Part shown: one piece after another, positions 5,639-46,705 of the stretch
How positions within the stretch are numbered: the stretch's first letter is position 1
Layout: every line of letters begins with the position of its first letter
The notes under the pieces: generated by a model
Seen by the model: the letters and a program-made list of their open reading frames with translations, nothing else
What the model was told of the DNA's origin: nothing
Database searches by the model: none
Program-made: the position numbers and the translations under genes
Source: Escherichia phage dhaeg
Sequence record: MN850609.1
Length of the DNA stretch: 64,000 nucleotides
Strand: one strand, 5' to 3'

Positions 5639-5667
5639 GTTTACATCCTCTAGGAACGTGATACTAT
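5639..5667 (+). promoter_or_regulatory. early promoter (GTTTAC / TACTAT)
   Basis: GTTTAC, 17-bp spacer, TACTAT, AGACCTATCAACT block. Confidence 0.65.
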
Positions 5668-5695
5668 AGACCTATCAACTAATGAGGAGAATAAA

Positions 5696-7446: not shown

Positions 7447-7899
7447 ATGATTATCAATGAAAACTCTTGGCATGTTAAATTACATGACCGCTTTTATGCC
7501 AGTTATTCGCGTCCGCGATCATTATGCGCATACTTCTGGAAAATGGTTTGGGTGTGCTTTATGTGTTCTGTGCTTGCAGGTAGTACTATTTTCGGCTTAA
7601 CTGTTGCAGGTGCCGGTATATTGGAGCAGTTCTTTGTATTGAGTACTCCTGTTGGTTTAAGTTTAGGTTTTATTTTAGGACTGATTATAATAGCCCTTAT
7701 TCTAGCGGTAGCTTTTGGTTTGGTGTATGGTCTAATGAATTTATGGGCCCGGTACGATTTACGTAAAGAAGAAAAAGAATGGGAACGCATTAAAGCTAAA
7801 CGTGAAGGAAAGGAAATTAAAGAAAATGTTTTCATTCAATATATTAAAGCTCGTAAATCTAAGATGTGTCCGGTAATCCATTTTGAGGCTAAGAAATGA
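7447..7899 (+). CDS. integral membrane protein
   Basis: 150 aa, two or three hydrophobic helices, basic C-terminus. Confidence 0.5.
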   Translation: MIINENSWHVKLHDRFYASYSRPRSLCAYFWKMVWVCFMCSVLAGSTIFGLTVAGAGILEQFFVLSTPVGLSLGFILGLIIIALILAVAFGLVYGLMNLWARYDLRKEEKEWERIKAKREGKEIKENVFIQYIKARKSKMCPVIHFEAKK

Positions 7900-8906
7900 G
7901 AACAGTTATGAAAGGCTACTTCGGTAGCCACCTTTATGGAACAAGTACTCCGGAATCTGATGTCGATTTTAAAGAAATCTTTGTTCCACATCCGCGTGAT
8001 ATTCTGTTAGGTACGGCAATGAACCATACCAACCTGAACACGAATAACACTGCTTCCAAAAACACTAAAGATGATGTTGACCATGAGCTTTACAGTCTGA
8101 AATATTTCTTTAAACTAGCTGCTGAAGGCGAAACCGTTGCTCTGGATATGCTCCACACTCCGCCTGAAATGGTGGTTAAATCTGATTTACCTGATGTATG
8201 GAAATTTATCCAAGATAACCGTTCGCGTTTCTATACAACCAACATGAAAGCCTATTTAGGGTACGTCCGTAAGCAAGCTTCTAAATATGGTGTTAAGGGT
8301 TCTCGACTGGCTGCTTTACGTGGTGTACTGGCAATTGTTAACCAGATTCCTGAACAGTGGGTTGATTATCAAGAAGATGGTTCTACTAAGCAACGACGTA
8401 CTAAGGTAGAAGATATTAAGCACCGGCTCCCTGAAAATGAGTTCTGTGAATGGGTATTTCATAACCACGAGAAAACAGGTCCTCAAACGTTCTATACCGT
8501 CCTCGGTCGTAAATACCAAACTACTTTGTCATTAATCGAGCTCAAGCAATCTCTGAATAAACTTGATGCCGAATATGGTGAACGTGCTCGTAAGGCCGAA
8601 GCCAATGAAGGTATTGACTGGAAAGCTCTGAGCCACGCTTATCGTGCTGGATATCAGTTGAAGGAAATCTATCAAACAGGCGATTTGGTTTATCCACTTA
8701 AAAATGCTTCTATTATTAAAGCAATAAAAGCAGGTGATATGCCTTTTAAAGTGGTCCAAGGGCTGCTAGAAAACATTGTTGATGAAGTTGAAGTCCTGGC
8801 TGTACAAGCTCATAAGAACGGTATACCTGAGAAGGTGGACATGAAGTTCTGGGACAAGTTCGTCGAAGAGGTGTATCTTGACAACCACAACTCTTATTAC
8901 CGCTAA
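7896..8906 (+). CDS. nucleotidyltransferase-fold protein (Pol-beta superfamily motif GS...DVD)
   Basis: 336 aa; GSHLYGTSTPESDVDF motif; ATGA overlap upstream. Confidence 0.5.
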   Translation: MRTVMKGYFGSHLYGTSTPESDVDFKEIFVPHPRDILLGTAMNHTNLNTNNTASKNTKDDVDHELYSLKYFFKLAAEGETVALDMLHTPPEMVVKSDLPDVWKFIQDNRSRFYTTNMKAYLGYVRKQASKYGVKGSRLAALRGVLAIVNQIPEQWVDYQEDGSTKQRRTKVEDIKHRLPENEFCEWVFHNHEKTGPQTFYTVLGRKYQTTLSLIELKQSLNKLDAEYGERARKAEANEGIDWKALSHAYRAGYQLKEIYQTGDLVYPLKNASIIKAIKAGDMPFKVVQGLLENIVDEVEVLAVQAHKNGIPEKVDMKFWDKFVEEVYLDNHNSYYR

Positions 8907-9102
8907 AGAAGAAATCAAGGTTTTCCTGTCATATGGAAGACCTCATAAAACCTGTCGTTGGTATCTTGAAGTAGTTTGTAGAGAAACCGGTAGACGAATC
9001 AATTTCAAGTACGTATGCAAGCCTACGTCTAAGCAGATAAGACGGTGTATTAACTGGGCTATCAATAATATCCGCTTCCATAATTATTGGAGCGCAATTT
9101 AG
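8878..9102 (+). CDS. hypothetical basic Cys-containing protein
   Basis: 74-aa ORF overlapping end of upstream gene; stop abuts terminator. Confidence 0.3.
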   Translation: MTTTTLITAKEEIKVFLSYGRPHKTCRWYLEVVCRETGRRINFKYVCKPTSKQIRRCINWAINNIRFHNYWSAI

Positions 9103-9124
9103 GAACCTTCGGGTTCCTTTTTTT
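9102..9124 (+). terminator. rho-independent terminator (GGAACC-TTCG-GGTTCC + T7), copy 1 of repeated cassette
   Basis: perfect hairpin plus T-tract; identical hairpin at about 43401 and 63909. Confidence 0.8.
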
Positions 9125-9143
9125 GGGTTCAGCACAAAAAAGT

Positions 9144-9172
9144 GTTTACAACCTAGTAGAGCATGTTATTAT
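9144..9172 (+). promoter_or_regulatory. early promoter (GTTTAC / TATTAT)
   Basis: AAAAAAGTGTTTAC, 17-bp spacer, TATTAT. Confidence 0.6.
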
Positions 9173-9209
9173 GGACCTATCAAATCTACTGAGTGAAACG
9201 GAGAATATA

Positions 9210-10190
9210 ATGTTAACTATCAAAATCAACAAAGGTATCTATCGAGGTAATGAAATCTCTGGTACGTTCATGAGTTCAGGTAAAACCTGGTTCCCTAATA
9301 AAATTCATGAATCCGAAGCTCACCTCGGTGACGGCAAGGTATTTGTACAGATTGATGGTGTTGAACGTGGTGTGTGGGTGTTCAAATGTGACATCGAAAT
9401 GGAAGGTGCTGAAGCTCCTGCAATGGTCACCGAATCCGCTGAAGAAATGAAACACCGCATCAACAAACGTTTTAAAGTAATGAACATGATGACTAACGGA
9501 ATCATCGATGGTAAAATTCGTTCCCTTATCATCTCTGGTGCCGCAGGTATTGGTAAAACATACTCTTTGGATAAAGCATTACAAAATGCCCATGAAAATG
9601 AAACTATCGAATATAAATCAATCAACGGAAAGATTAGTGGAATCGGTCTTTACGAGCAGCTTTGGAATAACCGCGGCCCTAATAGTGTTCTTCTTATTGA
9701 TGATGTTGATGTATTCTCTGACATGGATATCCTGAACCTTCTGAAAGCCGCATTGGATACTGGTGAAAAACGTAAGGTGTGTTGGAGCACTTCAAGTTCT
9801 TACCTCGACGATAAAAATATCGATAAAGAATTCGAATACGAAGGCACCATCGTGTTCATCACCAACGTTGATATTGACCGTGAATTAGAGCGTGGAACTA
9901 AACTTGCTCCACACCTCCAGGCTTTAGTATCTCGTTCCGTTTATCTCGACTTGGGTGTTCACTCAAACGAAGAGATTATGGTTCGGGTTGAAGACGTTAT
10001 CCTGTCCACTGATATGATGCAAAACCGAGGTCTGACCGATGCCGAGACTTATCAAGCTTTAGCATGGATGAAGGCTAATGTATCTCGTCTTCGTAACGTA
10101 TCATTACGTACAGCTCTTTATCTGGCGGACTTCATTGCCACCGATAAAAATGACTGGAGCGAAATCGCTGAAGTTACACTTCTGAAATAA
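9210..10190 (+). CDS. AAA+/P-loop ATPase
   Basis: Walker A GAAGIGKT, Walker B LLIDDVD; start placed at ATG after promoter (listed ORF start 9087 spans terminator and promoter). Confidence 0.6.
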   Translation: MLTIKINKGIYRGNEISGTFMSSGKTWFPNKIHESEAHLGDGKVFVQIDGVERGVWVFKCDIEMEGAEAPAMVTESAEEMKHRINKRFKVMNMMTNGIIDGKIRSLIISGAAGIGKTYSLDKALQNAHENETIEYKSINGKISGIGLYEQLWNNRGPNSVLLIDDVDVFSDMDILNLLKAALDTGEKRKVCWSTSSSYLDDKNIDKEFEYEGTIVFITNVDIDRELERGTKLAPHLQALVSRSVYLDLGVHSNEEIMVRVEDVILSTDMMQNRGLTDAETYQALAWMKANVSRLRNVSLRTALYLADFIATDKNDWSEIAEVTLLK

Positions 10191-10544: not shown

Positions 10545-10573
10545 GTTTACATCTCCAGTAGAAATGATACTAT
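10545..10573 (+). promoter_or_regulatory. early promoter (GTTTAC / TACTAT) with spacer/SD inverted repeat
   Basis: GTTTAC, 17 bp, TACTAT; CTCCAGTAG vs CTAATGGAG. Confidence 0.65.
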
Positions 10574-10599
10574 AGACCTATCAACTAATGGAGGTTATC

Positions 10600-11124
10600 A
10601 TGAACGCTAAAGATATTTTTTCACTGATTAATTTTAACAATGGTAATTTCAAATCTGAAAAACAAAGCAAGTTCTTTAACGACGTTGCTTGTGGTAATGA
10701 GATTACCGTATCTGGAGGAGAGATTTACAAAAGCCGTTGGAACTGGATTGTTATCATCGATTCAGTTGGTATTGTAGAGCTCTATAAAAACACTAACAAA
10801 AAACGTACTCTTCACTGGAGTCGTGAAACCAATCAAGCTTATCAAGCCGAGCGTAATAAACGTTTAATGCCTACTGAATCTGACCTGGCAAACGTTAAAT
10901 CAGATATCGCTTATTTTGATAACTTGATTGCCGAACAACAAGCGGTTATTGATAAGTTTGACGAAATCAAAGCTTGTAAAGAGATTCCTGAATTTATGCG
11001 GGAATCAGTAAACGAACAGTATGCCCTCACTTCAGGTCGTATCGAGCAGTACAAATCACAACGAGCTGAACGCCAAGCTCTGCTTCAGAAATTTGAAGAG
11101 CGTTTAAAGACGGTTCTCGCATAA
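10600..11124 (+). CDS. hypothetical protein with C-terminal coiled-coil tail
   Basis: ATG after GGAGG RBS; heptad-like C-terminus. Confidence 0.5.
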   Translation: MNAKDIFSLINFNNGNFKSEKQSKFFNDVACGNEITVSGGEIYKSRWNWIVIIDSVGIVELYKNTNKKRTLHWSRETNQAYQAERNKRLMPTESDLANVKSDIAYFDNLIAEQQAVIDKFDEIKACKEIPEFMRESVNEQYALTSGRIEQYKSQRAERQALLQKFEERLKTVLA

Positions 11125-11150: not shown

Positions 11151-11187
11151 GGTTCTAGGTTCTTAATTACTTACTGAGGAAATTATT

Positions 11188-12033
11188 ATGTCACAAGCAA
11201 TTAATCAAATTCGTTCTGAAGTTAAAAAAGTTGTTAAATTTGGTCGTATTCCTAGTTCTAAAGAAGTGGTTGAAAAGGTCCTATATATGATGTGGGACAA
11301 GTTCAATGTTTGTACTGTTAAAGATGACTTTATTAAAATCTTTGACAAGACTAAAGGTTCGTTTACGTTAGAAGACCGGGTCATGAAAACTCTTCGTAAA
11401 ACAGGTATGTTGTCTCGTGCTAATGCCAAAATTATTCTTAAAAATTATAACAAAGGCTACGACCTTTATGGTCGTTTAATCCCGGCGATGTCATTTGGTG
11501 AAGTTGTTCAAGACCTTCATGCCAACCAACGACGTTTACTGGCTCTTGGCGCTCGACTTGCAAAAGGTCTTGATAAACAAATGACATTTAAGACTAACGG
11601 TTCAGGTGATTGGATTATCTTTAATATTGTTAACCACCCTGGAAATGAAAATGAGTATACCATTTCGACTTTTAGTGGTTGTCAATACGACAACTGGAAG
11701 TTCCATCTGCGCTTGGCCCTGTCTGAATTAGAACAACACGGTGTTCTTAGTTTTGGTGATGCTGAAACTGGAGTAGGTCAGCGTATTAAACTTTATAAAA
11801 TTAAAGACCTGGCTGAAGAGCATTCAGAACAAGCTCCTAAAATGGAACCTGTACCAGTGCGCAGCAATGAGAAACATCAGGCCCAGATTGAGTATTTTAG
11901 CAATTTGCTTACTTGCTTGAATGTTACAATCCAACAACAAGATGATGAGATTTTCCGACTCTCTGGTCTTAATGCCAAAGCTAAGGCTGAACGCCAGAAA
12001 TATATCGATATCCTAAATCTTCTTAAGGATTAA
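11188..12033 (+). CDS. hypothetical protein with C-terminal coiled-coil tail
   Basis: 281 aa; conserved TIR ACTGAGGAAATTATTATG. Confidence 0.5.
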   Translation: MSQAINQIRSEVKKVVKFGRIPSSKEVVEKVLYMMWDKFNVCTVKDDFIKIFDKTKGSFTLEDRVMKTLRKTGMLSRANAKIILKNYNKGYDLYGRLIPAMSFGEVVQDLHANQRRLLALGARLAKGLDKQMTFKTNGSGDWIIFNIVNHPGNENEYTISTFSGCQYDNWKFHLRLALSELEQHGVLSFGDAETGVGQRIKLYKIKDLAEEHSEQAPKMEPVPVRSNEKHQAQIEYFSNLLTCLNVTIQQQDDEIFRLSGLNAKAKAERQKYIDILNLLKD

Positions 12034-17430: not shown

Positions 17431-17459
17431 GTTTACTTCCTCTCCTCACGTGTTATAGT
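17431..17459 (+). promoter_or_regulatory. early promoter (GTTTAC / TATAGT) with 13-bp spacer/SD inverted repeat
   Basis: TCTCCTCACGTGT vs ACACATGAGGAGA. Confidence 0.6.
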
Positions 17460-17488
17460 CTATCCTATCAACACATGAGGAGAACATT

Positions 17489-17665
17489 ATGACTATCCAA
17501 GATAAAGAAATTAAAGTCCACCAGTATTATTCAATCAACGGCAAAGCTGTTCTAGTAACTGAAATATCTAGCCTGGACGTGTGGTATACCATAATTGACC
17601 TTAATATTAAAATGATTTGTGACCGTGGTGTATTTTGTTCGATAGCTAAGGAAATTAAATTATGA
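17489..17665 (+). CDS. hypothetical small protein (unlisted ORF)
   Basis: 58 codons read by hand; GAGGAG RBS; ATGA overlap downstream. Confidence 0.4.
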   Translation: MTIQDKEIKVHQYYSINGKAVLVTEISSLDVWYTIIDLNIKMICDRGVFCSIAKEIKL

Positions 17666-18581: not shown

Positions 18582-18620
18582 GGTCCCACGGATTATAAAT
18601 TTTAAACTGAGGAAATTATT

Positions 18621-18950
18621 ATGTCACAAGCTATTAAAAACGTACTGAACTCTTTCGCTTTCGATAAAGTTAACGAACTGATGAAAACCGGCTTTGTAAC
18701 TCCTCAGGTTCTTGACCAATGGGTTGCTGAACTGTTACCAATCATGCACTCTAAAGACCAAAAAATTGGTAAGAACGGTATTCGTGAAATCCTGGTTCAA
18801 TATATTCTCGACGAGTTTGATGTGGCCGCCTTTGGTGTCGAATCTAAAGCTTGGCAGCCGGGTGAAATCACAGACAAAACCATCCGTCGTATGAAGAATC
18901 AACGTAAGAAAAAATTCGTTGACCTGAAAATTGTTAAGGCTGCTAAATGA
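18621..18950 (+). CDS. hypothetical protein
   Basis: 109 aa; shares TIR and first codons (MSQAI) with gene at 11188. Confidence 0.5.
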   Translation: MSQAIKNVLNSFAFDKVNELMKTGFVTPQVLDQWVAELLPIMHSKDQKIGKNGIREILVQYILDEFDVAAFGVESKAWQPGEITDKTIRRMKNQRKKKFVDLKIVKAAK

Positions 18951-36054: not shown

Positions 36055-37227
36055 ATGTCCGATTTAAAATCCCGTTTGATTAAAGCTTCTACTTCTAAAA
36101 TGACTGCCGATCTGACCAAATCTAAATTGTTTAATGGTCGTGACGAAGTTCCTACTCGTATTCCTATGCTTAATATTGCATTGGGTGGTGCGTTGAATGC
36201 AGGCTTACAATCAGGTTTGACAATCTTTGCTGCACCGTCTAAACACTTTAAAACGTTGTTTGGATTAACTATGGTTGCGGCATATATGAAGAAATATCCA
36301 GACGCAATTTGCTTGTTCTATGACTCTGAGTTCGGTGCTTCAGAATCTTATTTCCGTTCAATGGGTGTTGACCTGGAACGTGTGGTTCATACGCCAATCC
36401 AGTCAGTCGAACAACTGAAGGTTGACATGACCAACCAATTAGAAGAAATTACTCGTGGCGAAAAGGTTATTATCTTTATCGACTCCATCGGTAATACTGC
36501 TTCTAAGAAAGAAACCGAAGATGCTTTGAACGAGAAAGTTGTAGGTGATATGACTCGTGCTAAGTCTCTGAAATCTCTGTTCCGTATCGTAACACCTTAT
36601 TTGACTATCAAGGATATTCCTTGCGTAGCAATTAACCATACGGCTATGGAAATTGGTGGAATGTATCCTAAAGAGATTATGGGTGGTGGTACTGGTATTC
36701 TGTACTCTGCTTCTACCGTATTCTTTATCTCTAAACGTCAGGTTAAAGATGGTACCGAGCTCACTGGTTATGACTTCACCCTTAAGGCCGAAAAATCTCG
36801 TACTGTTAAAGAGAAATCAACGTTCCCAATTACTGTGAACTTTGAAGGTGGTATCGACCCGTTTAGTGGTCTGCTCGAAATGGCTACTGATATTGGCTTT
36901 GTCGTGAAACCTAAAGCTGGTTGGTATAATCGTGCATTCCTTGACGAAACTACAGGTGAAATGGTTCAAGAAGAAAAATCATGGCGTGCTAAAGCTACCG
37001 ATTGTGTCGAGTTCTGGGGACCGCTGTTTAAACATGCCCCGTTCCGTGAAGCAATCGAGAATAAGTATAAGCTTGGTGCAATTAATTCTATTAAAGAAGT
37101 CGATGATGCCGTGAACGACCTTATTAACTCTCGTGTCTCTAAGAACGTTGCAGTTAAATTGAGTGGTGACGCTCAAAGTGCTGCTGATATCGAAAACGAT
37201 TTAGAAGAGATGGATTTAGATGACTGA
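36055..37227 (+). CDS. uvsX: UvsX recombinase (RecA-like)
   Basis: 390 aa; N-terminus MSDLKSRLIKASTSK as recalled for T4 UvsX; RecA-fold motifs. Confidence 0.9.
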   Translation: MSDLKSRLIKASTSKMTADLTKSKLFNGRDEVPTRIPMLNIALGGALNAGLQSGLTIFAAPSKHFKTLFGLTMVAAYMKKYPDAICLFYDSEFGASESYFRSMGVDLERVVHTPIQSVEQLKVDMTNQLEEITRGEKVIIFIDSIGNTASKKETEDALNEKVVGDMTRAKSLKSLFRIVTPYLTIKDIPCVAINHTAMEIGGMYPKEIMGGGTGILYSASTVFFISKRQVKDGTELTGYDFTLKAEKSRTVKEKSTFPITVNFEGGIDPFSGLLEMATDIGFVVKPKAGWYNRAFLDETTGEMVQEEKSWRAKATDCVEFWGPLFKHAPFREAIENKYKLGAINSIKEVDDAVNDLINSRVSKNVAVKLSGDAQSAADIENDLEEMDLDD

Positions 37228-37549
37228 TTTATCTGATTTAGATAATTTTGTTAAAGATACTGAAGAGGGTCCTAGTGACCCTCGTTATTATGAGAAATCG
37301 TTAGATATAATCCGTAAGTCAATGGGTTCTGTTAAGCAGGAAATTATGCTTACATTACCCGATGGCACTGCTCACATCATTTATGTGATGAATATTGTTA
37401 TTGAGAAAGATGGAAAAGTGTCGGTTGATTTCGGAACTCCTTCCGAAGACCGAAAAGAAGAGCTAGCGCTTCATGTAGAAAAATGTGTTACAATGCAAAT
37501 ACAAGAAGAACTGGATAAAATTAAATCTAAGAGGTGGTGGAAGTGGTAG
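37220..37549 (+). CDS. gene 40-like protein (by position between uvsX and 41)
   Basis: 109 aa; synteny only. Confidence 0.35.
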   Translation: MTDLSDLDNFVKDTEEGPSDPRYYEKSLDIIRKSMGSVKQEIMLTLPDGTAHIIYVMNIVIEKDGKVSVDFGTPSEDRKEELALHVEKCVTMQIQEELDKIKSKRWWKW

Positions 37550-38973
37550 AAACTATTTTGGCTCAACTGCTAGGCAATAGTGATTATTTCACTAAGGTCT
37601 GGCCTTATATGAATGATTCTTATTTTGACCAGGGTCCGGCAAAGACCCTTTTCAAAGAAATAAAAAAACATGTCAATGAATATAATGCGGTGCCTTCTAA
37701 AAATGCTTTGAGTATTGCATTAGATAACAGCACCCTTTCAGAAGTTGAACACCAAGGAGCTAAAGAGCTTTTAAATTCTCTGAATGCAGGCCCTGAAGAC
37801 CAAGAATGGTTGGTTAAAGAGACAGAGAAATATGTTCAGAAGGCAGCGATGTATAATGCCACTTCAAAAATTATTGAAATTCAAACTAATGCCGACCTTC
37901 CGGTTGAGCAACAAAATAGAAAACTCCCAGGTATTGGTGCCATTCCGGATATCATGCGCGATGCATTATCGATTTGTTTCGATTCTGAATTAGGCCATGA
38001 CTGGATGGATGACTATGAAGAACGTTTTAAAAGTTATTCTGATAAAGCCCGTAAGGTTCCATTCCGTCTTAATATTCTGAATAAGATTACCAAGGGTGGC
38101 GCTGAGTTTGGTACTGAAAACGTATTGTTGGCAGGAACAAACGTAGGTAAGTCTCTTGGACTATGTTCATTGGCTGCTGATTACCTTCAATCCGGTTATG
38201 ATGTTCTTTATATCTCCATGGAGATGGCAGAGGAAGTATGTGCTAAGCGTATCGATGCCAACCTTCTGGATGTATCACTGGATGATATTGATGATGGTCA
38301 CGTCTCATGGCCTGAATATAAAGCTAAGATGGATAAGTGGCGTTCAACTGCTACTTTAGGTCGTTTAAAGATTAAACAGTACCCTACTGGTGGTGCTAAT
38401 GCCGATACATTCCGTGCATTATTAAACGAATACAAGCTCAAACAAAACTTTGTCCCACAGGTCGTTATCGTCGACTACTTGGCTATCTGTGCTTCATCTC
38501 GTACGAAAGTTTTCTCTGAAAACAGTTACGGATTGATTAAGATGGTTGCCGAAGAACTACGTGGCCTTGCAGTAGAGAAGAAATTATTGCTGTGGACTGC
38601 AGCCCAGACTACTCGTGGTGCGAATGTTGCGGCCGAAATCGATATGGCCGATATTGCTGAATCCTTTGGTATTGCACATACGGCAGACTTCATGTTAGGT
38701 GTGGTCGAGACAGAAGAGTTTGCTCAGATGGGTATGCAGATGGTTAAGCAGCTTAAATCTCGTTATGGCGATAAGAGCTACTACAACAAATTTAAGATTG
38801 GTGTTAAGAAAGGAAACCAGCGTTGGTATGAAGTTGAAGACGATTCTAACCCAGGTCCAGTGAACACCGTTCGTGAGGCTACAGGTGAAATGAACCGCCA
38901 AGCAGAGGTCAATCGCCAGTCGCGTGTTAATAGAAGCGATTTAGACGATTTAGCAGCATCTATCAAATTTTAA
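37543..38973 (+). CDS. 41: replicative DNA helicase gp41 (DnaB-like)
   Basis: Walker A GTNVGKS; similarity recalled to T4 gp41; GTG start after GAGGTGG RBS (listed ORF begins 37534). Confidence 0.85.
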   Translation: MVETILAQLLGNSDYFTKVWPYMNDSYFDQGPAKTLFKEIKKHVNEYNAVPSKNALSIALDNSTLSEVEHQGAKELLNSLNAGPEDQEWLVKETEKYVQKAAMYNATSKIIEIQTNADLPVEQQNRKLPGIGAIPDIMRDALSICFDSELGHDWMDDYEERFKSYSDKARKVPFRLNILNKITKGGAEFGTENVLLAGTNVGKSLGLCSLAADYLQSGYDVLYISMEMAEEVCAKRIDANLLDVSLDDIDDGHVSWPEYKAKMDKWRSTATLGRLKIKQYPTGGANADTFRALLNEYKLKQNFVPQVVIVDYLAICASSRTKVFSENSYGLIKMVAEELRGLAVEKKLLLWTAAQTTRGANVAAEIDMADIAESFGIAHTADFMLGVVETEEFAQMGMQMVKQLKSRYGDKSYYNKFKIGVKKGNQRWYEVEDDSNPGPVNTVREATGEMNRQAEVNRQSRVNRSDLDDLAASIKF

Positions 38974-38993
38974 GGAGCTTCGGCTCCTTTTTT
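38974..38993 (+). terminator. rho-independent terminator
   Basis: GGAGC-TTCG-GCTCC plus T6. Confidence 0.75.
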
Positions 38994-39002
38994 GTTTTAA
39001 GG

Positions 39003-39031
39003 GTTTACTTCTCCTGTAGGCATGATACTAT
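39003..39031 (+). promoter_or_regulatory. early promoter (GTTTAC / TACTAT)
   Basis: GTTTAC, 17 bp, TACTAT, AGACCTATCAACT. Confidence 0.65.
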
Positions 39032-39055
39032 AGACCTATCAACTTGGAGAACAAA

Positions 39056-39373
39056 ATGAAAACCATCGACTGTAAAGCAGAATATAAAGTGTATTATCAT
39101 GGAAGTTGTAGTGTTGCTAATATTGGTAATATGCTTTGTCCTCCTGAGGAAACAGGAGTTCTGTCTGAAACTGGTCGTAAGAAAAACCTAAATCGTGTGT
39201 TCTTTACTGAGGACATTGGTTTGGCTAAGATTTATGCTGGACGAGCTGCTCGTTCGGTGGGAGGAGAACCTCGTCTTTATCGTGTAATTGCTCCGGTAGA
39301 TGTGGTTTGTTTAAATGATACCAAAGGCGCTACGGTTTATCACGCTGAATGGGCCTTCTGTGAGGAAATCTAA
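39056..39373 (+). CDS. hypothetical protein
   Basis: internal ATG with GGAG RBS in ORF 39044-39373. Confidence 0.45.
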   Translation: MKTIDCKAEYKVYYHGSCSVANIGNMLCPPEETGVLSETGRKKNLNRVFFTEDIGLAKIYAGRAARSVGGEPRLYRVIAPVDVVCLNDTKGATVYHAEWAFCEEI

Positions 39374-39577
39374 ATGTATAAATTAGAGAACGTAGTGTTT
39401 ATTGGTTGGTTTGAAAACGGTAATATGTTTACCAAAGAAACTGCGCTGGATGTTAGTGACCAAAAAATGATTGAATGGGTTACAGTGCAGTATGCAGAAG
39501 TGAATAATGCACTGGTGAAAGCCTTTGTTAATGACAATAAAGTTTTTGAATATGATGCCCGCATTGAGGAAATCTAA
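39374..39577 (+). CDS. hypothetical protein
   Basis: 67-aa ORF, TAAATG junction. Confidence 0.4.
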   Translation: MYKLENVVFIGWFENGNMFTKETALDVSDQKMIEWVTVQYAEVNNALVKAFVNDNKVFEYDARIEEI

Positions 39578-39718
39578 ATGGAAGAGGTTGAATGTGTAGT
39601 ATGTGGTTGTTCGGTATGTGAAGACCAGGCGGTATTTGATGCTTGGGACAACGCAACTTGTTTAGACTGCGATAGCGAATACGAAGAAATTGCTCATAAA
39701 CATGAAGACGAGGAATAA
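39578..39718 (+). CDS. small acidic zinc-ribbon-like protein (unlisted ORF)
   Basis: 46 codons read by hand; CVVCGC...CLDC; GAGGAA RBS. Confidence 0.4.
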   Translation: MEEVECVVCGCSVCEDQAVFDAWDNATCLDCDSEYEEIAHKHEDEE

Positions 39719-39958
39719 ATGAATATCGTACTAATGAAGCCAACCCCTAGCTCTTTTTGGAATAAATCTTTTGGTAAGCATAATATGTTTATCCAACGCA
39801 CCGTAAGCAGCTGGGAACTAGTTCTTTCAGTCGGTCACAACGATTATGAACAAGAATATGTAGAGTTCTTCGAATTTCCTGTGAAGCCTACTAAGCGTCA
39901 GATTCGTCAGACCAAACGTAAATTCCGTAAAATTTATTTGGAAGATTCGTTAAAATAA
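39719..39958 (+). CDS. hypothetical basic protein
   Basis: 79-aa ORF. Confidence 0.4.
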   Translation: MNIVLMKPTPSSFWNKSFGKHNMFIQRTVSSWELVLSVGHNDYEQEYVEFFEFPVKPTKRQIRQTKRKFRKIYLEDSLK

Positions 39959-39959
39959 A

Positions 39960-39989
39960 GTTTACATCGGTCTATGGTAGTGATACTAT
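39960..39989 (+). promoter_or_regulatory. early promoter (GTTTAC / TACTAT)
   Basis: GTTTAC, 18 bp, TACTAT, AGACCTATCAACT. Confidence 0.65.
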
Positions 39990-40017
39990 AGACCTATCAA
40001 CTAATGAGGAGTTAAAA

Positions 40018-40311
40018 ATGAAAAAGTTATTAATCGCAGCAATCCTTACAGTAGCATCATGTGGCACGGCTCCGGTAACTGCCGGATTGGATAAAGACCT
40101 TTGTGAATGGTCTATGACTGCAGACCAAGAGTCAGTTGAACATCAGATTTACGCTGATATCATGAACATCACTAAACGCGACCGTCCTGATATGGTTAAA
40201 GAAGTATCTGACCAATTGGCTTCTAGTGGTGTTATGCAGTATAACTATGTTCTGTACTGTGATGCTAATTTCGATAACAAAAATATTGTTAAAGAGGTGA
40301 CAGGTGAATAA
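40018..40311 (+). CDS. sp: periplasmic lipoprotein, spackle (Sp)-like superinfection exclusion candidate
   Basis: 97 aa; signal peptide with lipobox VASC; position between 41 and 61; resemblance to T4 Sp recalled with uncertainty. Confidence 0.4.
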   Translation: MKKLLIAAILTVASCGTAPVTAGLDKDLCEWSMTADQESVEHQIYADIMNITKRDRPDMVKEVSDQLASSGVMQYNYVLYCDANFDNKNIVKEVTGE

Positions 40312-40744
40312 GATTAACAGAAATTTAGTTATCAAAAAGCTTCGTTGTAAAAATCCAAATGCACAAGCATACAGGATGTTTTGGAGCGACGACCACCAGT
40401 ACCTAGGTTATTTTCTTGTTGATAGTGATGATAGGATTATATTTGCCCATAAACTTCTTAATAGAGAATTAAACCACTGGGAAGAACTTATTGCAGTGAA
40501 GTCTAAATTATTTTCATGTAATACAATGCACCAATTGGTTTATTTTTTCTCTGATGGTATTCCTGACAAGGTTGAGTTTGAAGGGTTTGAATTTAAAGAT
40601 ATCCTCCGGGACAACGAATTGAATGATGCCGTTAATATGGATATCCCTAGCAAGTATATCAAAAACAGTCTGTTGAAAATTCTGGAAGCTCCGGTTTATT
40701 CAATCGACGACCAGATTTTTAATGCCTTTATGAACCGAGGTTAA
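40304..40744 (+). CDS. hypothetical protein
   Basis: 146-aa ORF. Confidence 0.45.
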   Translation: MNKINRNLVIKKLRCKNPNAQAYRMFWSDDHQYLGYFLVDSDDRIIFAHKLLNRELNHWEELIAVKSKLFSCNTMHQLVYFFSDGIPDKVEFEGFEFKDILRDNELNDAVNMDIPSKYIKNSLLKILEAPVYSIDDQIFNAFMNRG

Positions 40745-40745
40745 T

Positions 40746-40937
40746 ATGACTGCAATGTGTACAGGCTCTAAGATTTCTGTATTCGAACTGTTCGAAGAAT
40801 ATGAAATCGTATCAAAAGACCAAGAAGCTATCCATATTATTGCAGGTGATGGCTTAACTTGGATTATTCCACTTTACCACGAAGATACGTATGAAGTCAC
40901 TGATGCAAATGGTGATAAAGCTATTTTCGTAATATAA
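40746..40937 (+). CDS. hypothetical acidic protein
   Basis: 63-aa ORF. Confidence 0.4.
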   Translation: MTAMCTGSKISVFELFEEYEIVSKDQEAIHIIAGDGLTWIIPLYHEDTYEVTDANGDKAIFVI

Positions 40938-40940
40938 ATA
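40933..40940 (+). promoter_or_regulatory. candidate T4-type late promoter TATAAATA
   Basis: exact TATAAATA octamer 13 nt upstream of small ORF 40954. Confidence 0.35.
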
Positions 40941-40953
40941 AGGCCAGGAGCCT

Positions 40954-41115
40954 ATGAAATCTTTTAAAGAAGTTATGAACGAAGATATGGTCGCAGGCGA
41001 TGCTGATGGAAATCCATCTAATATTGCCTCCGGAACTACCTCAGGCGCAGTCGTCAACAAAGGGCCTGAACAAATCCCATCTAAAAAGCGTAAAGAAAAA
41101 TCCGAAAACGAATGA
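40954..41115 (+). CDS. hypothetical small protein (unlisted ORF)
   Basis: 53 codons read by hand; AGGAG RBS. Confidence 0.35.
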   Translation: MKSFKEVMNEDMVAGDADGNPSNIASGTTSGAVVNKGPEQIPSKKRKEKSENE

Positions 41116-41141
41116 TATAATGGCTCTATTAATTTAGAGCC
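41116..41141 (+). promoter_or_regulatory. extended -10 promoter (TGATATAAT) followed by hairpin GGCTCTA/TAGAGCC upstream of primase
   Basis: TGnTATAAT then 7-bp inverted repeat. Confidence 0.45.
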
Positions 41142-41153
41142 CAAGGAAAAATA

Positions 41154-42182
41154 ATGTCATATGTCGATAGAGAATTTGCTGTACGTGCCTTGAATTACCA
41201 ACCTAAATTCAGACAAGTAACTGGTAGTGATTTTAAATTAAACTGTCGTTGCCGTGTATGTGGTGACTCCCAAAAAGATGAAAACAAAGCTCGATTCTGG
41301 GCCTATCCGGCCAATGACGGCTCTGTAATGCTACACTGTTTTAACTGTGATTATTCGGCAGGAATTAAGAAGTACCTATACGAATACGAACCTGATTTAT
41401 ATCGGGAATATATTCTTGAGAAACATAAAGAGCAATCGTTCGGGAGACAAGCTGCACCTAAGGTGGAGATATCTGAAAAAATTAAAGCTAAGATGCCTGT
41501 AATCGAAAAGCTTAATTTCTGTGAACGATTAGATAGAATGCCGAAGGACCATCCTATTATCAAATATGTGACGTTACGTTGCATTCCTGAAAATAAATGG
41601 AATCGTCTATGGTTTACTAAAGAATGGCCTGCATTGGTTAACTCAGTTAATCCAGGAACCTATTCTAAAGAAATGCCTGAGCCCCGTTTGGTTATTCCTA
41701 TTTTCAATAAGGATAAACAAATAGAAAGTTTCCAGGGTCGAGCCTTGCGTAAAGATGCCCCACAAAAATATATTACAATAAAAGCTCATGACCAAGCTAC
41801 AAAAATATATGGAATGGATACGGTTGACGAACGTCAATTGGTATGGGTTATGGAAGGGCCTATTGATTCTTTATTTGTCCCTAATGCCATAGCAATTACT
41901 GGTGGGTCATTAGACTTATCAGTAGTTCCATGTAAAGAAACAAGAGCGTGGGTAATGGACAATGAACCCCGTCATCCTGACACAATTAAGCGTATGCAAC
42001 GCCTAGTTGATGCTGGCGAAAGGGTTCTATTCTGGGACAAGGCTCCGTGGCCTTCTAAAGATATAAATGATATGGTTATGAAAGATAAAGCTGATATAAA
42101 TGATGTATTGGCATATATGAAAGCTAATATAGCCCAAGGGTTAATGGCAAAAATGAGGCTTTCAAAATATTCTAAAATTTAG
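41154..42182 (+). CDS. 61: DNA primase gp61 (zinc finger + Toprim)
   Basis: 342 aa; CRCRVCGDS...HCFNC zinc-binding region; Toprim-like EGPIDSL, DNEPR. Confidence 0.8.
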   Translation: MSYVDREFAVRALNYQPKFRQVTGSDFKLNCRCRVCGDSQKDENKARFWAYPANDGSVMLHCFNCDYSAGIKKYLYEYEPDLYREYILEKHKEQSFGRQAAPKVEISEKIKAKMPVIEKLNFCERLDRMPKDHPIIKYVTLRCIPENKWNRLWFTKEWPALVNSVNPGTYSKEMPEPRLVIPIFNKDKQIESFQGRALRKDAPQKYITIKAHDQATKIYGMDTVDERQLVWVMEGPIDSLFVPNAIAITGGSLDLSVVPCKETRAWVMDNEPRHPDTIKRMQRLVDAGERVLFWDKAPWPSKDINDMVMKDKADINDVLAYMKANIAQGLMAKMRLSKYSKI

Positions 42183-42379
42183 ACAGGAACTCCGCTAAAG
42201 AATCCAATTATGCTTAACACGTGTTCCATTGTAACCGCTGGTAAAATTACCCCTTGGCTAGCGGCTACAGGGACTACTAGAAGATTCCAAAGGAATACGT
42301 CTAGCGCAAGAAAACCTAACATCATTTTCTTGTCTTTCTTTTCTGCCAATTTCCAGATTTGGTAAAAAATACTGCCCAT
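42179..42379 (-). CDS. small membrane protein on the opposite strand (convergent with primase)
   Basis: 66 aa; AGGAGG RBS 6 nt upstream of ATG on minus strand; no competing + strand ORF across 42183-42470. Confidence 0.55.
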   Translation of the reverse strand: MGSIFYQIWKLAEKKDKKMMLGFLALDVFLWNLLVVPVAASQGVILPAVTMEHVLSIIGFFSGVPV

Positions 42380-42408
42380 GTTATCCTCCTGTTAAATTAA
42401 TATTTATT

Positions 42409-42432
42409 CGCTTTAGTCTAACAGTTTATAAT
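42409..42432 (+). promoter_or_regulatory. candidate middle-type promoter for gene 56 (CGCTTTA box, 11 bp, TATAAT)
   Basis: MotA-box-like motif and TATAAT. Confidence 0.35.
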
Positions 42433-42470
42433 TATCTAACTTATTAATGAATTGAAAAAGGAAAAATATA

Positions 42471-42992
42471 ATGGCTCATTTTAATGAATGTTCTCAACTT
42501 ATTGCTGGTGCTGATAAAGCTGAAGAAGCTTATTTTAATGCTCTGATTCACGAAGATAAAGACCCTCTGCAAGTTATGCTTGATATGCAGAAATCATTAC
42601 AGGTTCGTCTGGCCACTGAAAAATCGGAATTCAACACCAATCCTGATGAACTAGCTACAGCAGGTCAAGTTGTTGATTGGCTTCGCAACCAGAAAGATTA
42701 TATTGATGATGAATTCCGTGAACTGCTGACTTCTCTTGGCGGTATGAGTAATGGCGAAAAAGCTGCCTCTAGTGTGTGGAAGCCTTGGAAAGCCCAACAT
42801 GCTGAATTCCGTAATCGTCGTATTGACGAGTTGTCTCCTGAAGACCAGCTCGAAATCAAATTCGAGATGATTGATATTCTGCACTTTGTTCTTAATATGT
42901 TCCAGGGTCTTGGACTGACCGCTGAAGAAATCTTTAAACTGTATTATCTGAAAAATGCCGAGAACTTTGCTCGTCAAGACCGAGGTTATTAA
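42471..42992 (+). CDS. 56: dCTP pyrophosphatase (dCTPase/dUTPase, gp56, MazG-like)
   Basis: 173 aa; near-identity recalled to T4 gp56 at both termini. Confidence 0.85.
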   Translation: MAHFNECSQLIAGADKAEEAYFNALIHEDKDPLQVMLDMQKSLQVRLATEKSEFNTNPDELATAGQVVDWLRNQKDYIDDEFRELLTSLGGMSNGEKAASSVWKPWKAQHAEFRNRRIDELSPEDQLEIKFEMIDILHFVLNMFQGLGLTAEEIFKLYYLKNAENFARQDRGY

Positions 42993-43160
42993 TGCCTCGT
43001 TTAAATAAACGTCAACTCAAAAAGTTGAATAAGAAAAGGGCTTCGGCCGCTATTTTATTACGTAACGAAATAACTAAAGAAATAGACAGAGAAATCATTG
43101 AAGCTTTGGCGAATTCAAAGTAATAAATACGCCTGTAATTAAACAACAAAGGAGTTAATT

Positions 43161-43394
43161 ATGGGTGGTTTCGTTAATATAAAAACCTTTACGCATCCAG
43201 CTGGTGAAGGTAAAGAAGTTAAAGGTACTGAGGTTTCGGTTCCGTTTGAAATCTATTCTAATGAGCATCGTATCGCTAATTCTCATTATCAGACTTTCCC
43301 TTCTGCAGTTGCGGCCTACTCAACCGTAGTTACTGATGCTGCTGATTGGCGAACTAAGAACGCGGCGATGTTTACGCCAACTGATATTGTTTAA
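43161..43394 (+). CDS. soc: small outer capsid protein Soc
   Basis: 77 aa; GFVNIKTF...HYQTFPS...AAYSTV as recalled for T4 Soc. Confidence 0.7.
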   Translation: MGGFVNIKTFTHPAGEGKEVKGTEVSVPFEIYSNEHRIANSHYQTFPSAVAAYSTVVTDAADWRTKNAAMFTPTDIV

Positions 43395-43400
43395 TTATAA

Positions 43401-43422
43401 GGAACCTTCGGGTTCCTTTTTT
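43401..43422 (+). terminator. rho-independent terminator (GGAACC-TTCG-GGTTCC + T6), copy 2
   Basis: identical hairpin to those at 9102 and 63909. Confidence 0.8.
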
Positions 43423-43433
43423 CGTTTTTAATG

Positions 43434-43463
43434 GTTTACTTTCTTATTGGACCGAGTTAAGAT
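43434..43463 (+). promoter_or_regulatory. early promoter (GTTTAC, weak -10)
   Basis: GTTTAC, about 17 bp, TAAGAT; GAGGAG RBS downstream. Confidence 0.45.
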
Positions 43464-43489
43464 AGACCTATCTTATAGAGGAGAACACT

Positions 43490-43699
43490 ATGTTAAATCG
43501 TTGGATTAAACCAAATAAAACTTTGGATGAAATTATCGCTAATCACGTATTGAAAAAGTACTTCTATACTCCTTGGTATACCGAAGTTATTGTCCATTCA
43601 TTTATGATGCATGAAGACGGTTCTGTCGAATTTAATGCCGAAATCCGTCACGAGACTGATGATATTGATAAAGTTGAATTTAAACGAGGTTTCCTATGA
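43490..43699 (+). CDS. hypothetical protein
   Basis: 69-aa ORF. Confidence 0.45.
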   Translation: MLNRWIKPNKTLDEIIANHVLKKYFYTPWYTEVIVHSFMMHEDGSVEFNAEIRHETDDIDKVEFKRGFL

Positions 43700-44013
43700 T
43701 TCGTTGGCTTAAGAATTTTTTCAAGACCAAACCTGGTGAAGGGATGGTTCCTATCTCGGGCCCAAAGGAATACGTTTACATGGGTGATGGTATGATGGAA
43801 GAAGTTATCCGTCAGCCTGAAAAAGCAGGTAATGTTGGTGTTGGTGCGTTACCACTGAATTCTAAAAAGTTAAAAGAACACCTAGAAACTCGTCGTACAA
43901 ACCATATTGATACCACTCCTATTATGGTTGCGGCTGCCGTTAGTTCTTGGACCGGCGATTCGTCTTATTCTGACTCAGGAAGCTGTGACTCTTCGTCAAG
44001 CTCGTGTGATTAA
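43696..44013 (+). CDS. hypothetical protein with Ser/Cys-rich C-terminal tail
   Basis: 105 aa; low-complexity SSYSDSGSCDSSSSSCD end. Confidence 0.4.
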   Translation: MIRWLKNFFKTKPGEGMVPISGPKEYVYMGDGMMEEVIRQPEKAGNVGVGALPLNSKKLKEHLETRRTNHIDTTPIMVAAAVSSWTGDSSYSDSGSCDSSSSSCD

Positions 44014-44213
44014 TGAAACCTTTATCATGGCTTAAAGATTGGCTAGACCGTCCTGGTGATTATCTTGATGACGGTTGGTTAGACCAAGCTAACGCAGAAA
44101 TGAAACATGAATCTGAGGAATGGATTCTTAAAGGTATCCGTGAAGAACGCGAAAAGAAATTAGAACGCGAGGCCCTTAGGATTATGCGTGATATCTATGG
44201 GGATAAATCATGA
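44013..44213 (+). CDS. hypothetical protein
   Basis: 66-aa ORF. Confidence 0.4.
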
Positions 44214-44377
44214 CTATTGAAGAAGCTGAAGCACGTACTAAAGAGGCAATGGATTTGCTTCTTAAAATTGGTAGTAAAATGATGGAAGAAAACGAGAAAT
44301 ACATCCAGGAAAATAAAATTCCGGATGGCCCTTTAGTAGGTAAACTAAAAAGAGGAAAACATAATGAAAGTTTATGA
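44210..44377 (+). CDS. hypothetical small protein (unlisted ORF)
   Basis: 55 codons read by hand; ATGA overlap upstream. Confidence 0.3.
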
Positions 44378-44855
44378 ACTAGAATTCCATGTGCGTGATT
44401 CATCCGGTCAAACGCGGCCTTATGATGCCACGGCTGCCCTTATCCTTGTTGACAACGGCATGAATTCTATCACCCAATTAGAAACACGATTAAAAGATAT
44501 TAAGCTGCCAGAAAATATTCTAATGAAGGCATATCATAATAAAAATGTTGATGTTGCTGAGGGGTGTCCTTTTAGCCTGGCTGAAGCATTACATATCAAG
44601 GGTTATCGTTATCCGGCGGACCCATATGCCGAAGGAACAATGGATATTTTCTATAAAGATACTGATAGAATGTCCAACGAACGTCTTAAAGGTCGTACAT
44701 ATTTGATTTCCACCACCGAAGACCTTACTGAAGTCGAACGACAGATTTGGAAACACTTTGATATTGGCTTACGTTTTACTATGACTGAAGAAGCTATTCG
44801 TGATGCTAAGTTACGAGCTCGTATGTATGGTTATGGTCCTATCGGTGGTTACTAA
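44364..44855 (+). CDS. hypothetical protein
   Basis: 163 aa; AGAGGAAAA RBS. Confidence 0.5.
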
Positions 44856-45043
44856 TGGACTTATTTGATATGTTCGTCATTCCGGACCCTGAGCCTGAAA
44901 CAACTCAGGAGCCGCCTATTGACCTTGTCAATGAACTTGATATGATTATACAGAAGCACGGCTTTAAGTTGCCTAAAGATGCCCTGGCCGACCTAGCTTC
45001 TTACTATCAAGACCCTCCACCATGGGCACCTTGGGTAAAATAA
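44855..45043 (+). CDS. hypothetical acidic protein
   Basis: 62-aa ORF. Confidence 0.4.
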   Translation: MDLFDMFVIPDPEPETTQEPPIDLVNELDMIIQKHGFKLPKDALADLASYYQDPPPWAPWVK

Positions 45044-45276
45044 TGAATTGGCTAACAAATATACCTACATCGGCATTAGATATAGACCGTAAACAAGCTC
45101 GTAAGGAAATCGAGCAAAAAAATATTCAGGCAAAAGCTCCTAAGATTATGACCAAGGCGCCGGAAATAAAAAGCTCTTATCAACCAAAAAGCTCTTATAC
45201 TTCATATACCCAATCCTTAACAGGCCAAGCTGCTGACATTGCAGTGTTTGGCGTCCCACTTGGTGTGTTTAAGTAG
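45043..45276 (+). CDS. hypothetical protein
   Basis: internal ATG at TAATG junction of ORF 45022-45276. Confidence 0.4.
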   Translation: MNWLTNIPTSALDIDRKQARKEIEQKNIQAKAPKIMTKAPEIKSSYQPKSSYTSYTQSLTGQAADIAVFGVPLGVFK

Positions 45277-45304
45277 TTTACACCTCCTCCCTTCATGTTA
45301 TAAT
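45276..45304 (+). promoter_or_regulatory. early promoter (GTTTAC / TATAAT)
   Basis: GTTTAC, 17 bp, TATAAT; ACCTCC in spacer complementary to downstream GGAGGT SD. Confidence 0.6.
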
Positions 45305-45328
45305 GACCTCTAAATCACTGGAGGTCAT

Positions 45329-45898
45329 ATGAACATCGAACAAAAATGTCTTTATCAAGACCGAATCAATTCTAAATTTTCAAAATCTGAACAAGCGTTG
45401 TTAGAGAAATGTCTGGATGCCAAAAAAGACCCTAACTTCCATTATGACCTAGACAAACTAGTTCGTAAGCATGTTACTTCGGTCGTTCCGGTAGAGCTTT
45501 ATCGTGGGATTACTCCAAGAGAACTTGAGCAACTTGAAGTTCTTTCTGTCGGATGCCAGTGGTCTCCCGGCCGTGTTACTTCTTTTAGTACACAATACTC
45601 TCAGGCTCGTCAGTTCGCAGGGGCGTGGGAATATGGAACTAAAACCATCTTAAGTCTCAGGAATGCACCGTTCATTTTCGACTACTACAATCATGCTATC
45701 GACCTTGTTCTTGCAGGGAATGTGGACGAACTTGAAATAGATGAAACCCGGATAGACCTCTATGATATGGTCGAAACTGAATGTGAGTTCATGGTCTCTA
45801 GTCTATCACGGTTCGAGATTGTGGAAATCGAAACTATCAAAAGAGACCCATACGAAATCGAGTACAAAATAATTCATTTAAAAATGTTAGATTTTTAG
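45329..45898 (+). CDS. modB: mono-ADP-ribosyltransferase, Mod family (modB position)
   Basis: 189 aa; R-S-ExE class motifs LYRG, SFS, ECEF; paralog of next gene; synteny between soc and dda. Confidence 0.6.
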   Translation: MNIEQKCLYQDRINSKFSKSEQALLEKCLDAKKDPNFHYDLDKLVRKHVTSVVPVELYRGITPRELEQLEVLSVGCQWSPGRVTSFSTQYSQARQFAGAWEYGTKTILSLRNAPFIFDYYNHAIDLVLAGNVDELEIDETRIDLYDMVETECEFMVSSLSRFEIVEIETIKRDPYEIEYKIIHLKMLDF

Positions 45899-45927
45899 TT
45901 TACAGGCAAGGATGCTTGTGGTACTAT
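45898..45927 (+). promoter_or_regulatory. early promoter (GTTTAC / TACTAT)
   Basis: GTTTAC, 18 bp, TACTAT. Confidence 0.6.
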
Positions 45928-45952
45928 CTTTCTATCAACTGAGGAGAATAAT

Positions 45953-46567
45953 ATGTTATATCCAAATCATAAATTATCAGAGTTCTATGACAATGTTAAA
46001 TGTGATGATTTCCGTGAAAACATTCAGGGTGAAATAGACGGGCAGTACTCTGATTTAGAACAGAGTGTCCTCTGGCAGTGCATGGAAAATAAACCTGATT
46101 CTATCCAAGAAACTTTGAACAAAATCATTCGTAAGAATCTAACTTCTGTAGTGCCTGACAAACTGTACCGTGGAATTTCTAAGAAAACTTTGAAATACCT
46201 CGAATCGGTAGGATGTGTTGGTGCCACAATTGAATTTGACAGAGTAATGAGCTTCTCTAAAGATTTTAAGGTGGCCCGTAACTTTGCTTCATATAATTTT
46301 TACGGAACCAAAAATATTTTCTGTATTAATGATGCACCTTTTGCATTTGATTACCAGGAAGCAATCTTTAAAATGATTTGTGGCGCTCCTCCCGAAGAGT
46401 TCAACGGGCCATATCCAGAAATAACTCGTACTTCAAACTTGCAATTAGTAAACGATGAAGATGAGATGATGTTCCCTGCGGGAACTACGCTACGCGTAGA
46501 CTCTATTGAGAGAGTTTGTGGATGGCAAGATTATACATTATGGAATCTTTCCGTTCTTTCTTACTGA
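45953..46567 (+). CDS. modA: mono-ADP-ribosyltransferase, Mod family (modA position)
   Basis: 204 aa; LYRG, SFS, EDEMMF; paralog of upstream gene. Confidence 0.6.
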   Translation: MLYPNHKLSEFYDNVKCDDFRENIQGEIDGQYSDLEQSVLWQCMENKPDSIQETLNKIIRKNLTSVVPDKLYRGISKKTLKYLESVGCVGATIEFDRVMSFSKDFKVARNFASYNFYGTKNIFCINDAPFAFDYQEAIFKMICGAPPEEFNGPYPEITRTSNLQLVNDEDEMMFPAGTTLRVDSIERVCGWQDYTLWNLSVLSY

Positions 46568-46636
46568 ACCACCCGGTTTAATTGAAAGGCAAAGTCCTTG
46601 ATTCATTATACCGTCGAAAATTTAAAGCAAAAAAGT

Positions 46637-46665: not shown

Positions 46666-46705
46666 AGACCTATCAACTAATCGTCCGTAAGATGAGAAAA
46701 ATATC

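Follow-up and report, generated by a model that had tools for sequence, protein, structure and literature searches.

Two paralogous terminator-promoter cassettes at early-gene boundaries of a Dhakavirus genome where small ORFs come and go

Introduction

Promoter-early stem-loops (PeSLs) of T4-type phages (Arbiol et al. 2010, PMC2839356; Comeau et al. 2014, PMC4122927) have been described in RB49/phi1, T4/PST, and KVP40/nt-1 (PMC2839356, PMC4122927). In the T-even phages, the defining layout of a PeSL is a TTTACW-type early promoter (TTTACW, ~17 nt, TAYWAT) with a stem-loop just 5' of it and a Shine-Dalgarno (SD) sequence and an ATG after it (PMC4122927). Mini-circles formed by exchange between neighbouring PeSLs were assayed in infected cells or virions by inverse PCR, and JS98 is mentioned in the same 2010 paper only for PeSL-like sequences near g43 (PMC2839356). 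Two other described systems are relevant here. The early promoters of T4 are of the UP/-35/TGn/-10 type (Hinton 2010 review, PMC2988021), and lambdoid phages carry morons (Hendrix and colleagues), whose insertion is attributed to illegitimate recombination, conserved repeats at the flanks being absent (PMC2839356).

Here, we analysed a 64,000-nt stretch of DNA from Escherichia phage dhaeg (MN850609.1; from here on, the window), for which a first-pass annotation had proposed that a near-identical terminator-promoter cassette of about 49 bp is repeated at three sites, which we refer to as A (9101), B (43401), and C (63908). Terminator-promoter cassettes of the PeSL kind are already known in T4-type phages, and the published PeSL concept fits sites A and C; the earlier interpretation is largely right for these two of the three sites. 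Like PeSLs, the elements in the window combine a stem-loop terminator, a sigma70-type early promoter, an SD, and an ATG in intergenic spaces, they provide many copies of dispersed homology, and ORFs between two copies are present or absent among close relatives. As in the T4/PST class of PeSLs, the Dhakavirus stem-loop lies just upstream of the TTTACW promoter. Unlike PeSLs, the full Dhakavirus cassette exists in two copies only and has a conserved linker that is not AT-rich, and one site of the three is static; moreover, indels are not enriched at promoter junctions in the window.

Results

Three 2-3 kb pieces of the window are 94-100% identical to Dhakavirus genomes, of which dhabil and CLB_P2 are the closest and JS98 is also among the matches. 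Judged by this identity, the window comes from a Dhakavirus, i.e., a JS98-like T4-type coliphage. The whole window is one long early-gene region, in which the early promoters are all on the plus strand. According to the annotations of relatives, site A has nrdC.11 and a 74-aa ORF upstream and nrdC.10 downstream, site B is flanked by soc upstream and mrh.2 downstream, and site C has gp52 and a 34-aa membrane ORF upstream and a small ORF followed by motA downstream. Scanned against Rfam at gathering thresholds, the whole window matched zero families.

A search for GTTTAC-N16-18-TAnnnT identified 24 sites on the plus strand of the window and 0 on the minus strand; these are mostly intergenic and are followed by an SD and an ATG. 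Like the T4 early promoters, they have a GTTTAC-type -35 box, an extended -10 element (TGn), a TAnnAT -10 box, an A-rich upstream stretch, and a single direction of transcription; unlike the T4 promoters, the Dhakavirus set has an extra conserved leader, (T)AGACCTATCAAC, past the -10 box. Many early promoters have an identical TGATACTATAGACCTATCAAC across the predicted start (families D1 and D2), e.g., at 1526-1545, 5661-5680, 10567-10586, 39025-39044, and 46659-46678, and several crossover junctions fall in this conserved leader. Five segments (1504-1563, 10545-10602, 17431-17491, 50007-50064, and 60559-60616) contain a stem whose 5' arm sits upstream of the predicted start, so that only read-through RNA could form the stem and mask the SD; a similar layout, with promoter and stem-loop overlapping, characterises the RB49-type class of PeSLs. 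We also noticed that two gene starts, at 11160-11204 and 18593-18637, are near-identical in SD, start codon, and first codons (CTGAGGAAATTATTATGTCACAAGC...; 84% identity over 45 nt), which could reflect paralogous N-termini or a common translation-initiation module.

At all three sites, a UUCG-loop hairpin with a 7-8 bp stem and a U6-7 run, i.e., a predicted intrinsic terminator, is located 11-20 nt upstream of an early promoter. Tuerk and colleagues reportedly found, in 1988, that intercistronic regions of T4 contain hairpins with a C(UUCG)G tetraloop. The hairpins in the window do not differ in kind from these, having a very stable, C-G-closed UUCG tetraloop and a U-run at gene ends. The hairpin sequence GGAACCTTCGGGTTCC occurs in the window in three exact copies (9102, 43401, and 63909), all on the plus strand, against 0.01 expected, and UUCG-loop terminators with other stems are found at 5601, 27884, 38972, and 52924. 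In relation to the PeSL definition, the promoter and the predicted-terminator stem-loop are present at A, B, and C, while an SD and an ATG follow at A and B in the window and at C in the relatives.

At site A, where all features are on the plus strand, the predicted terminator hairpin AGGAACC-UUCG-GGUUCCU (9101-9118) is seen in the sequence, contains the exact 16-mer, and is a hit in the terminator scan. Its 5' arm overlaps the TAG stop codon (9100-9102) of the upstream 74-aa ORF, and the 41-nt segment that includes it (9090-9130) has a predicted RNA fold of -18.3 kcal/mol (z = -4.5). The T7 run at 9118-9124 is the U-tract of this terminator in both the sequence and the terminator scan. Next follow the linker GGGTTCAGCAC, an A6 tract, and GT (9125-9143), which occupy the UP-element position just 5' of the -35 box. 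By analogy with the architecture of T4 early promoters (PMC2988021), the linker and A6 tract may act as an UP-like element. The early promoter (9144-9172) begins with GTTTAC and comprises a -35 box TTTACA (9145-9150), TGn (9164-9166), and a -10 box TATTAT (9167-9172), with a score of 10/12 with TG in the promoter scan; transcription would start near 9179. Finally, 9200-9212 comprises the SD GGAG (9200) and, at 9210, the start codon ATG of the nrdC.10-like gene (9210-10190), as supported by the sequence and the annotations of relatives.

Site C, also on the plus strand, has the same layout. The predicted terminator, AAGGAACC-UUCG-GGUUCCUU with a T7 run (63907-63931), is supported by the sequence, the exact hairpin, and the predicted fold; it is kept in all relatives examined, and its 5' arm overlaps the TAA stop codon (63906-63908) of the 34-aa membrane ORF that follows gp52. 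The sequence then continues with the linker GGGTTTAGTGC, A6, and GT (63932-63950) and with the early promoter (63951-63990), which consists of GTTTAC, TGn (63971-63973), a -10 box TACTAT (63974-63979), and the conserved leader AGACCTATCAAA. The SD and ATG of site C are seen in relatives only, the window ending before the downstream ORF. The promoters at A (TTTACA-16-TATTAT) and C (TTTACT-16-TACTAT) both have TGn and a spacer that is 17 nt when counted from GTTTAC, and the leader past their -10 boxes is (A)GACCTATCAAA.

Site B shares less with the other two. The claim of a cassette at three sites holds for the two near-identical 49-mers at A and C, while 43401 has only the hairpin, the T-run (together ~22 nt), and GTTTAC. 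These parts are as annotated for 43401-43439, with GGAACCTTCGGGTTCC exact at 43401 and GTTTAC at 43434. On the plus strand, the predicted terminator AAGGAACC-UUCG-GGUUCCUU with T6 (43399-43422) begins 5 nt past the soc stop codon (43392-43394), and its hairpin has a predicted RNA fold of -11.4 kcal/mol. The promoter region (43434-43492) comprises GTTTAC, a 17-nt spacer (TTTACT-17-TAAGAT), the -10 box TAAGAT (43458-43463), the SD GAGGAG, and the ATG of the mrh.2-like gene at 43490. Only 11 nt separate the T-run from GTTTAC at this site, and the region is AT-rich; at A and C, the T6-7 run and the A6 tract are split by the GC-containing GGGTTTAGTGC. The AT-rich upstream stretch of PeSLs is therefore matched only in part.

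The similarity between A and C was as the first-pass annotation had described it: 9101-9149 and 63908-63956 match at 46/49 positions, and a binomial estimate predicts ~1e-13 pairs of this quality in 64 kb. In a self-comparison of the window, the repeat finder (family D6) stretched the pair to 98 nt with 80% identity (9096-9193 versus 63903-64000). The further recurrences reported at 46631 and 50001 were in part confirmed: AAAAAAGTGTTTAC is exact at the first of these, but at 46629, while the sequence at ~50001 reads GTAAAAGTGTTTAC, a match of 12/14. Exact copies of AAAAAAGTGTTTAC are thus found at 9136, 46629, and 63943, and a copy with a single mismatch is found at 59828.

Independent terminators and promoters could look alike by functional constraint, without common ancestry and without a role in recombination. 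As an account of the whole set of sites, we regard this as unlikely, although it describes site B well, where only the hairpin, the T-run, and GTTTAC are shared, and the UUCG loop recurs in many terminators of the window with different stems. For the A-C pair, it is ruled out by the identity of 41/45 nt upstream of the -35 box: among the 253 pairs of 23 promoters, the mean was 16.7 (sd 3.0) and the second-ranking pair had 25, so that the A-C score is 8 sd above the other promoter pairs. It also leaves aside the 11-nt linker, which has no known consensus role; the linker in the form T6-7 GGGTTTAGTGC A6 was found only at loci A and C in every genome examined. A classical UP element is AT-rich, which this linker is not, and the GC-containing linkers of A and C are also unlike the T4 early promoters, which are A/T-rich at that position. 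Thus, explanation by promoter and terminator consensus, which the first-pass annotation had itself named as the objection to its reading, is sufficient for site B, while the A-C likeness is far above consensus. On these comparisons, only A and C are true paralogues, with a common hairpin, T-run, 11-nt linker, A-tract, and -35 box. We also asked whether A and C evolve in concert within a genome; their variants had no clear pattern, and this idea was dropped.

The hairpin by itself says little about descent. The exact 21-mer GGAACCTTCGGGTTCCTTTTT (hairpin and T5) occurs in 101 IMG/VR stretches, ~80 of which have unrelated flanks, and several of the occurrences are in other T4-like genomes ahead of other promoters. 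Because the hairpin GGAACC/GGUUCC is popular in unrelated phage contigs, its presence at B is uninformative on a shared origin, and we dropped hairpin identity as a sign of common descent. From the sequence comparisons, the likeness of site B to A and C is explained by consensus alone. A fourth Dhakavirus locus with GGAACCTTCGGGTTCC, outside the window (IMG/VR stretches L036, L040, L072, L082, and L127), precedes a late-promoter-like motif, TATAAATA, and not an early promoter.

In paralogues and orthologues alike, conservation is higher in the linker and A-tract than in the hairpin or promoter spacer. This conservation, together with the position of both cassettes in a single-strand early-gene region, would fit a regulatory paralogue under selection, in which A and C need the same control (promoter strength or a factor site in the linker) and the nearby indels are unrelated. 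We know of no factor site that matches GGGTTTAGTGC, and it has no Rfam match. Other Dhakaviruses have the linker consensus GGGTTTAGTGC-A6 at site A; the window's own A copy, GGGTTCAGCAC, differs from it by three changes, and the constraint on the linker is therefore not absolute. Since this reading also leaves the junctions inside promoter repeats described below unexplained, we consider it very improbable.

By contrast with the linker, the site A stem varies among relatives, and it always pairs. The orthologous stem in dhabil and CLB_P2 is GGACCC/GGGTCC, i.e., a compensatory change, and the variants found across relatives (GGAACC/GGTTCC, GGACCC/GGGTCC, AAAGGCC/GGCCTTT, and GGGCC-GTAT-GGCCC) all still pair, which supports selection for structure.

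The first-pass annotation had set its reading against the prospect that relatives have no rearrangements at these elements. At A and C, relatives have several alternative gene contents exactly at the cassettes. The nrdC.11/nrdC.10 junction (site A) has at least five architectures among relatives. The window, dhabil, and CLB_P2 have no insert; IME341 has an extra 85-aa ORF and a second promoter; JS98 has a different ORF of ~77 aa with a 39-nt exact promoter repeat on its flanks, lacks ~190 bp upstream, and has another hairpin; IME08 has the JS98-type left side without the ORF; and MN04 has a 252-aa reverse-strand ORF between another hairpin and the promoter. The same classes are visible from span lengths across ~30 records. 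In MN04 (locus L007, 1627-2382), the opposite-strand ORF has a different, symmetric hairpin on one side and the nrdC.10 promoter on the other, and it is the sole reverse-strand gene observed at this junction; going by span length, C6 is probably arranged as MN04. The ~190 bp from the nrdC.11 stop codon to hairpin A (8907-9100 in the window) encode the 74-aa ORF, which is annotated in CLB_P2 only. The matching segment is absent from JS98 and IME08, where the 3' end of nrdC.11 differs and abuts another hairpin.

The ORFs found at site A in the JS98 type (11 records) and the IME341 type (3 records) were sought at other loci and occurred at site A only, and a transfer of cassettes between A and C is for this reason undemonstrated. 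The JS98 site A promoters have the spacer of the site C type (TCTGCTTTAAACATG). From these sequences, it is plausible but unproven that a site C-like array recombined into site A of JS98 by means of two shared elements, the linker on its left side and the leader on its right.

At site C, the promoter recurs in CLB_P2 and JS98, identical over 41 nt, ~330 nt downstream before motA and behind a second hairpin. The interval contains one ORF (ORF1) in CLB_P2, dhabil, JS98, C6, and others, the unrelated ORF2 in JS10, MN04, and others, no ORF in ABTNLS3, fDHCT2, and ~20 records in all, and two ORFs with a third promoter in IME08. In the empty form, exactly one promoter is fused to the motA leader, which, to judge by the sequence, is the product expected from exchange between the two direct repeats.

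A third, related example lies inside the window. The promoters at 60251 and 60559 (60251-60564, plus strand) bracket a 63-aa ORF (60312-60503); MN04 and fDHCT2 are without the 60251-60559 unit, and the junction is located inside the shared GTTTACATCTC. At A, C, and 60251/60559, the neighbouring ORFs thus differ among relatives, as described for PeSLs, with junctions inside repeated promoter sequence, which argues against a consensus-only explanation at these places. At site B, neighbouring ORFs do not differ: we found no rearrangement in five relatives, all of which are collinear with an invariant hairpin. The proposed role as recombination substrates is supported by the alternative gene contents and the promoter junctions at A and C but not by site B.

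The first-pass annotation had described the cassettes as mobile, PeSL-like modules. The PeSL-like part stands, the order of stem-loop, TTTACW-type early promoter, SD, and ATG agreeing with the published definition (PMC4122927), but the mobile part is unsupported. A self-moving element, or one that a dedicated enzyme (recombinase or nuclease) moves after recognising the hairpin or linker, in a MITE-, homing-, or integron attC-like manner, might account for the striking conservation of the T6-GGGTTTAGTGC-A6 linker at two loci in all genomes examined and for the gp52-motA interval, which resembles a small cassette array with 0, 1, or 2 ORFs; Arbiol et al. also speculated on a stem-loop-binding protein (PMC2839356). 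We consider such an element highly improbable. The full cassette is present in just two copies at the same orthologous positions in every genome examined, the cassettes have no terminal inverted repeats or target-site duplications, the annotations of relatives contain no adjacent integrase- or transposase-like gene, the site A ORFs were not found at other loci, and the hairpin varies at site A while the junctions fall in the promoter. A MITE-like or homing-element reading was rejected, as the structural hallmarks are missing.

To place these junctions in the context of the whole window, we mapped indels against four relatives (MN04, ABTNLS3, fDHCT2, and CLB_P2) and identified 37 indel/replacement events. 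Using crude ORF tiling and these four relatives only, which makes the result rough and indicative rather than final, we found no enrichment at promoter junctions (8/24 versus 32/109 other junctions; odds ratio 1.2, p = 0.81). This lack of an overall excess is in agreement with a consensus-only explanation, and the cassettes may be merely tolerated boundaries. Most of the 37 events are gains or losses of whole ORFs at stop/start overlaps with 1-13 nt microhomology. One 207-bp segment with a 69-aa ORF (1291-1497) is missing in all four relatives (4/4) and stops 6 nt upstream of the promoter at 1504.

The genome is, by sequence comparison, a recent mosaic. Over ~19 kb (36877-56055), the window has two differing aligned columns relative to CLB_P2, while the rest is more diverged (~98% mean identity over the whole chain). 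We looked for edges of mosaic blocks at the cassettes; the ~19-kb CLB_P2 block ends inside genes, and a boundary at a cassette was observed at A versus dhabil only. In that comparison, there is 1 mismatch in 7500-9099, 11 in 9100-9199, and ~3 per 100 nt downstream, and this jump marks cassette A as a mosaic boundary.

Discussion

We consider it probable that the cassettes are composite gene-boundary control units and that the promoter repeats at A and C also serve as passive homology for the gain, loss, and swap of small ORFs. In this scheme, the C(UUCG)G hairpin and U-run would end the upstream transcript, i.e., that of nrdC.11 and the 74-aa ORF at A, of soc at B, and of gp52 and the 34-aa ORF at C. 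The early promoter 11-20 nt further on, with its A-tract, GTTTAC, TGn, and -10 box, would then restart transcription into the nrdC.10-like gene, the mrh.2-like gene, and the small ORF before motA, respectively. With a terminator followed by a promoter at each boundary, we propose that gene blocks are transcriptionally insulated. The terminator and promoter functions at A, B, and C are predicted and supported by analogy to T4, and the linker and A-tract would make an UP-like contribution.

The promoter part (~40-60 nt) is a dispersed direct repeat and as such could offer passive, portable homology to the homologous recombination of the phage itself. A crossover between two such promoter copies would insert, delete, or swap the small ORFs lying between them, and we infer a causal part for the repeats in the rearrangements, as opposed to a mere location at gene boundaries where change is tolerated. 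Like morons, the ORFs concerned are small, non-essential, and situated between resident genes with their own promoter and terminator; unlike morons, they are flanked in Dhakavirus by repeated promoters, and the junctions fall within these.

In a more speculative reading, which we think distinctly unlikely, T6-GGGTTTAGTGC-A6 is specifically recognised, either by a protein of the phage or host or in a targeted recombination step, A and C are docking points for ORF cassettes, and the gp52-motA interval is a miniature integron-like array. If true, nrdC.11/nrdC.10 and gp52/motA would be dedicated docking points, with 0 to 2 promoter-bracketed ORFs in the gp52-motA array.

Two aspects of our data temper the PeSL idea. 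The gene gains and losses in the window are mostly at plain stop/start overlaps, with promoter junctions not being favoured, and one of the three "copies" (site B) is merely a generic terminator. Returning to the reading that we prefer, control units whose promoter repeats double as passive homology, the nrdC.11/nrdC.10 and gp52/motA junctions represent two clean natural test cases for the PeSL idea. For annotation, the cassettes are useful in that they mark early transcription units and predict accessory small ORFs. Dhakavirus joins the T4-type groups with terminator-promoter cassettes at which small accessory genes come and go.
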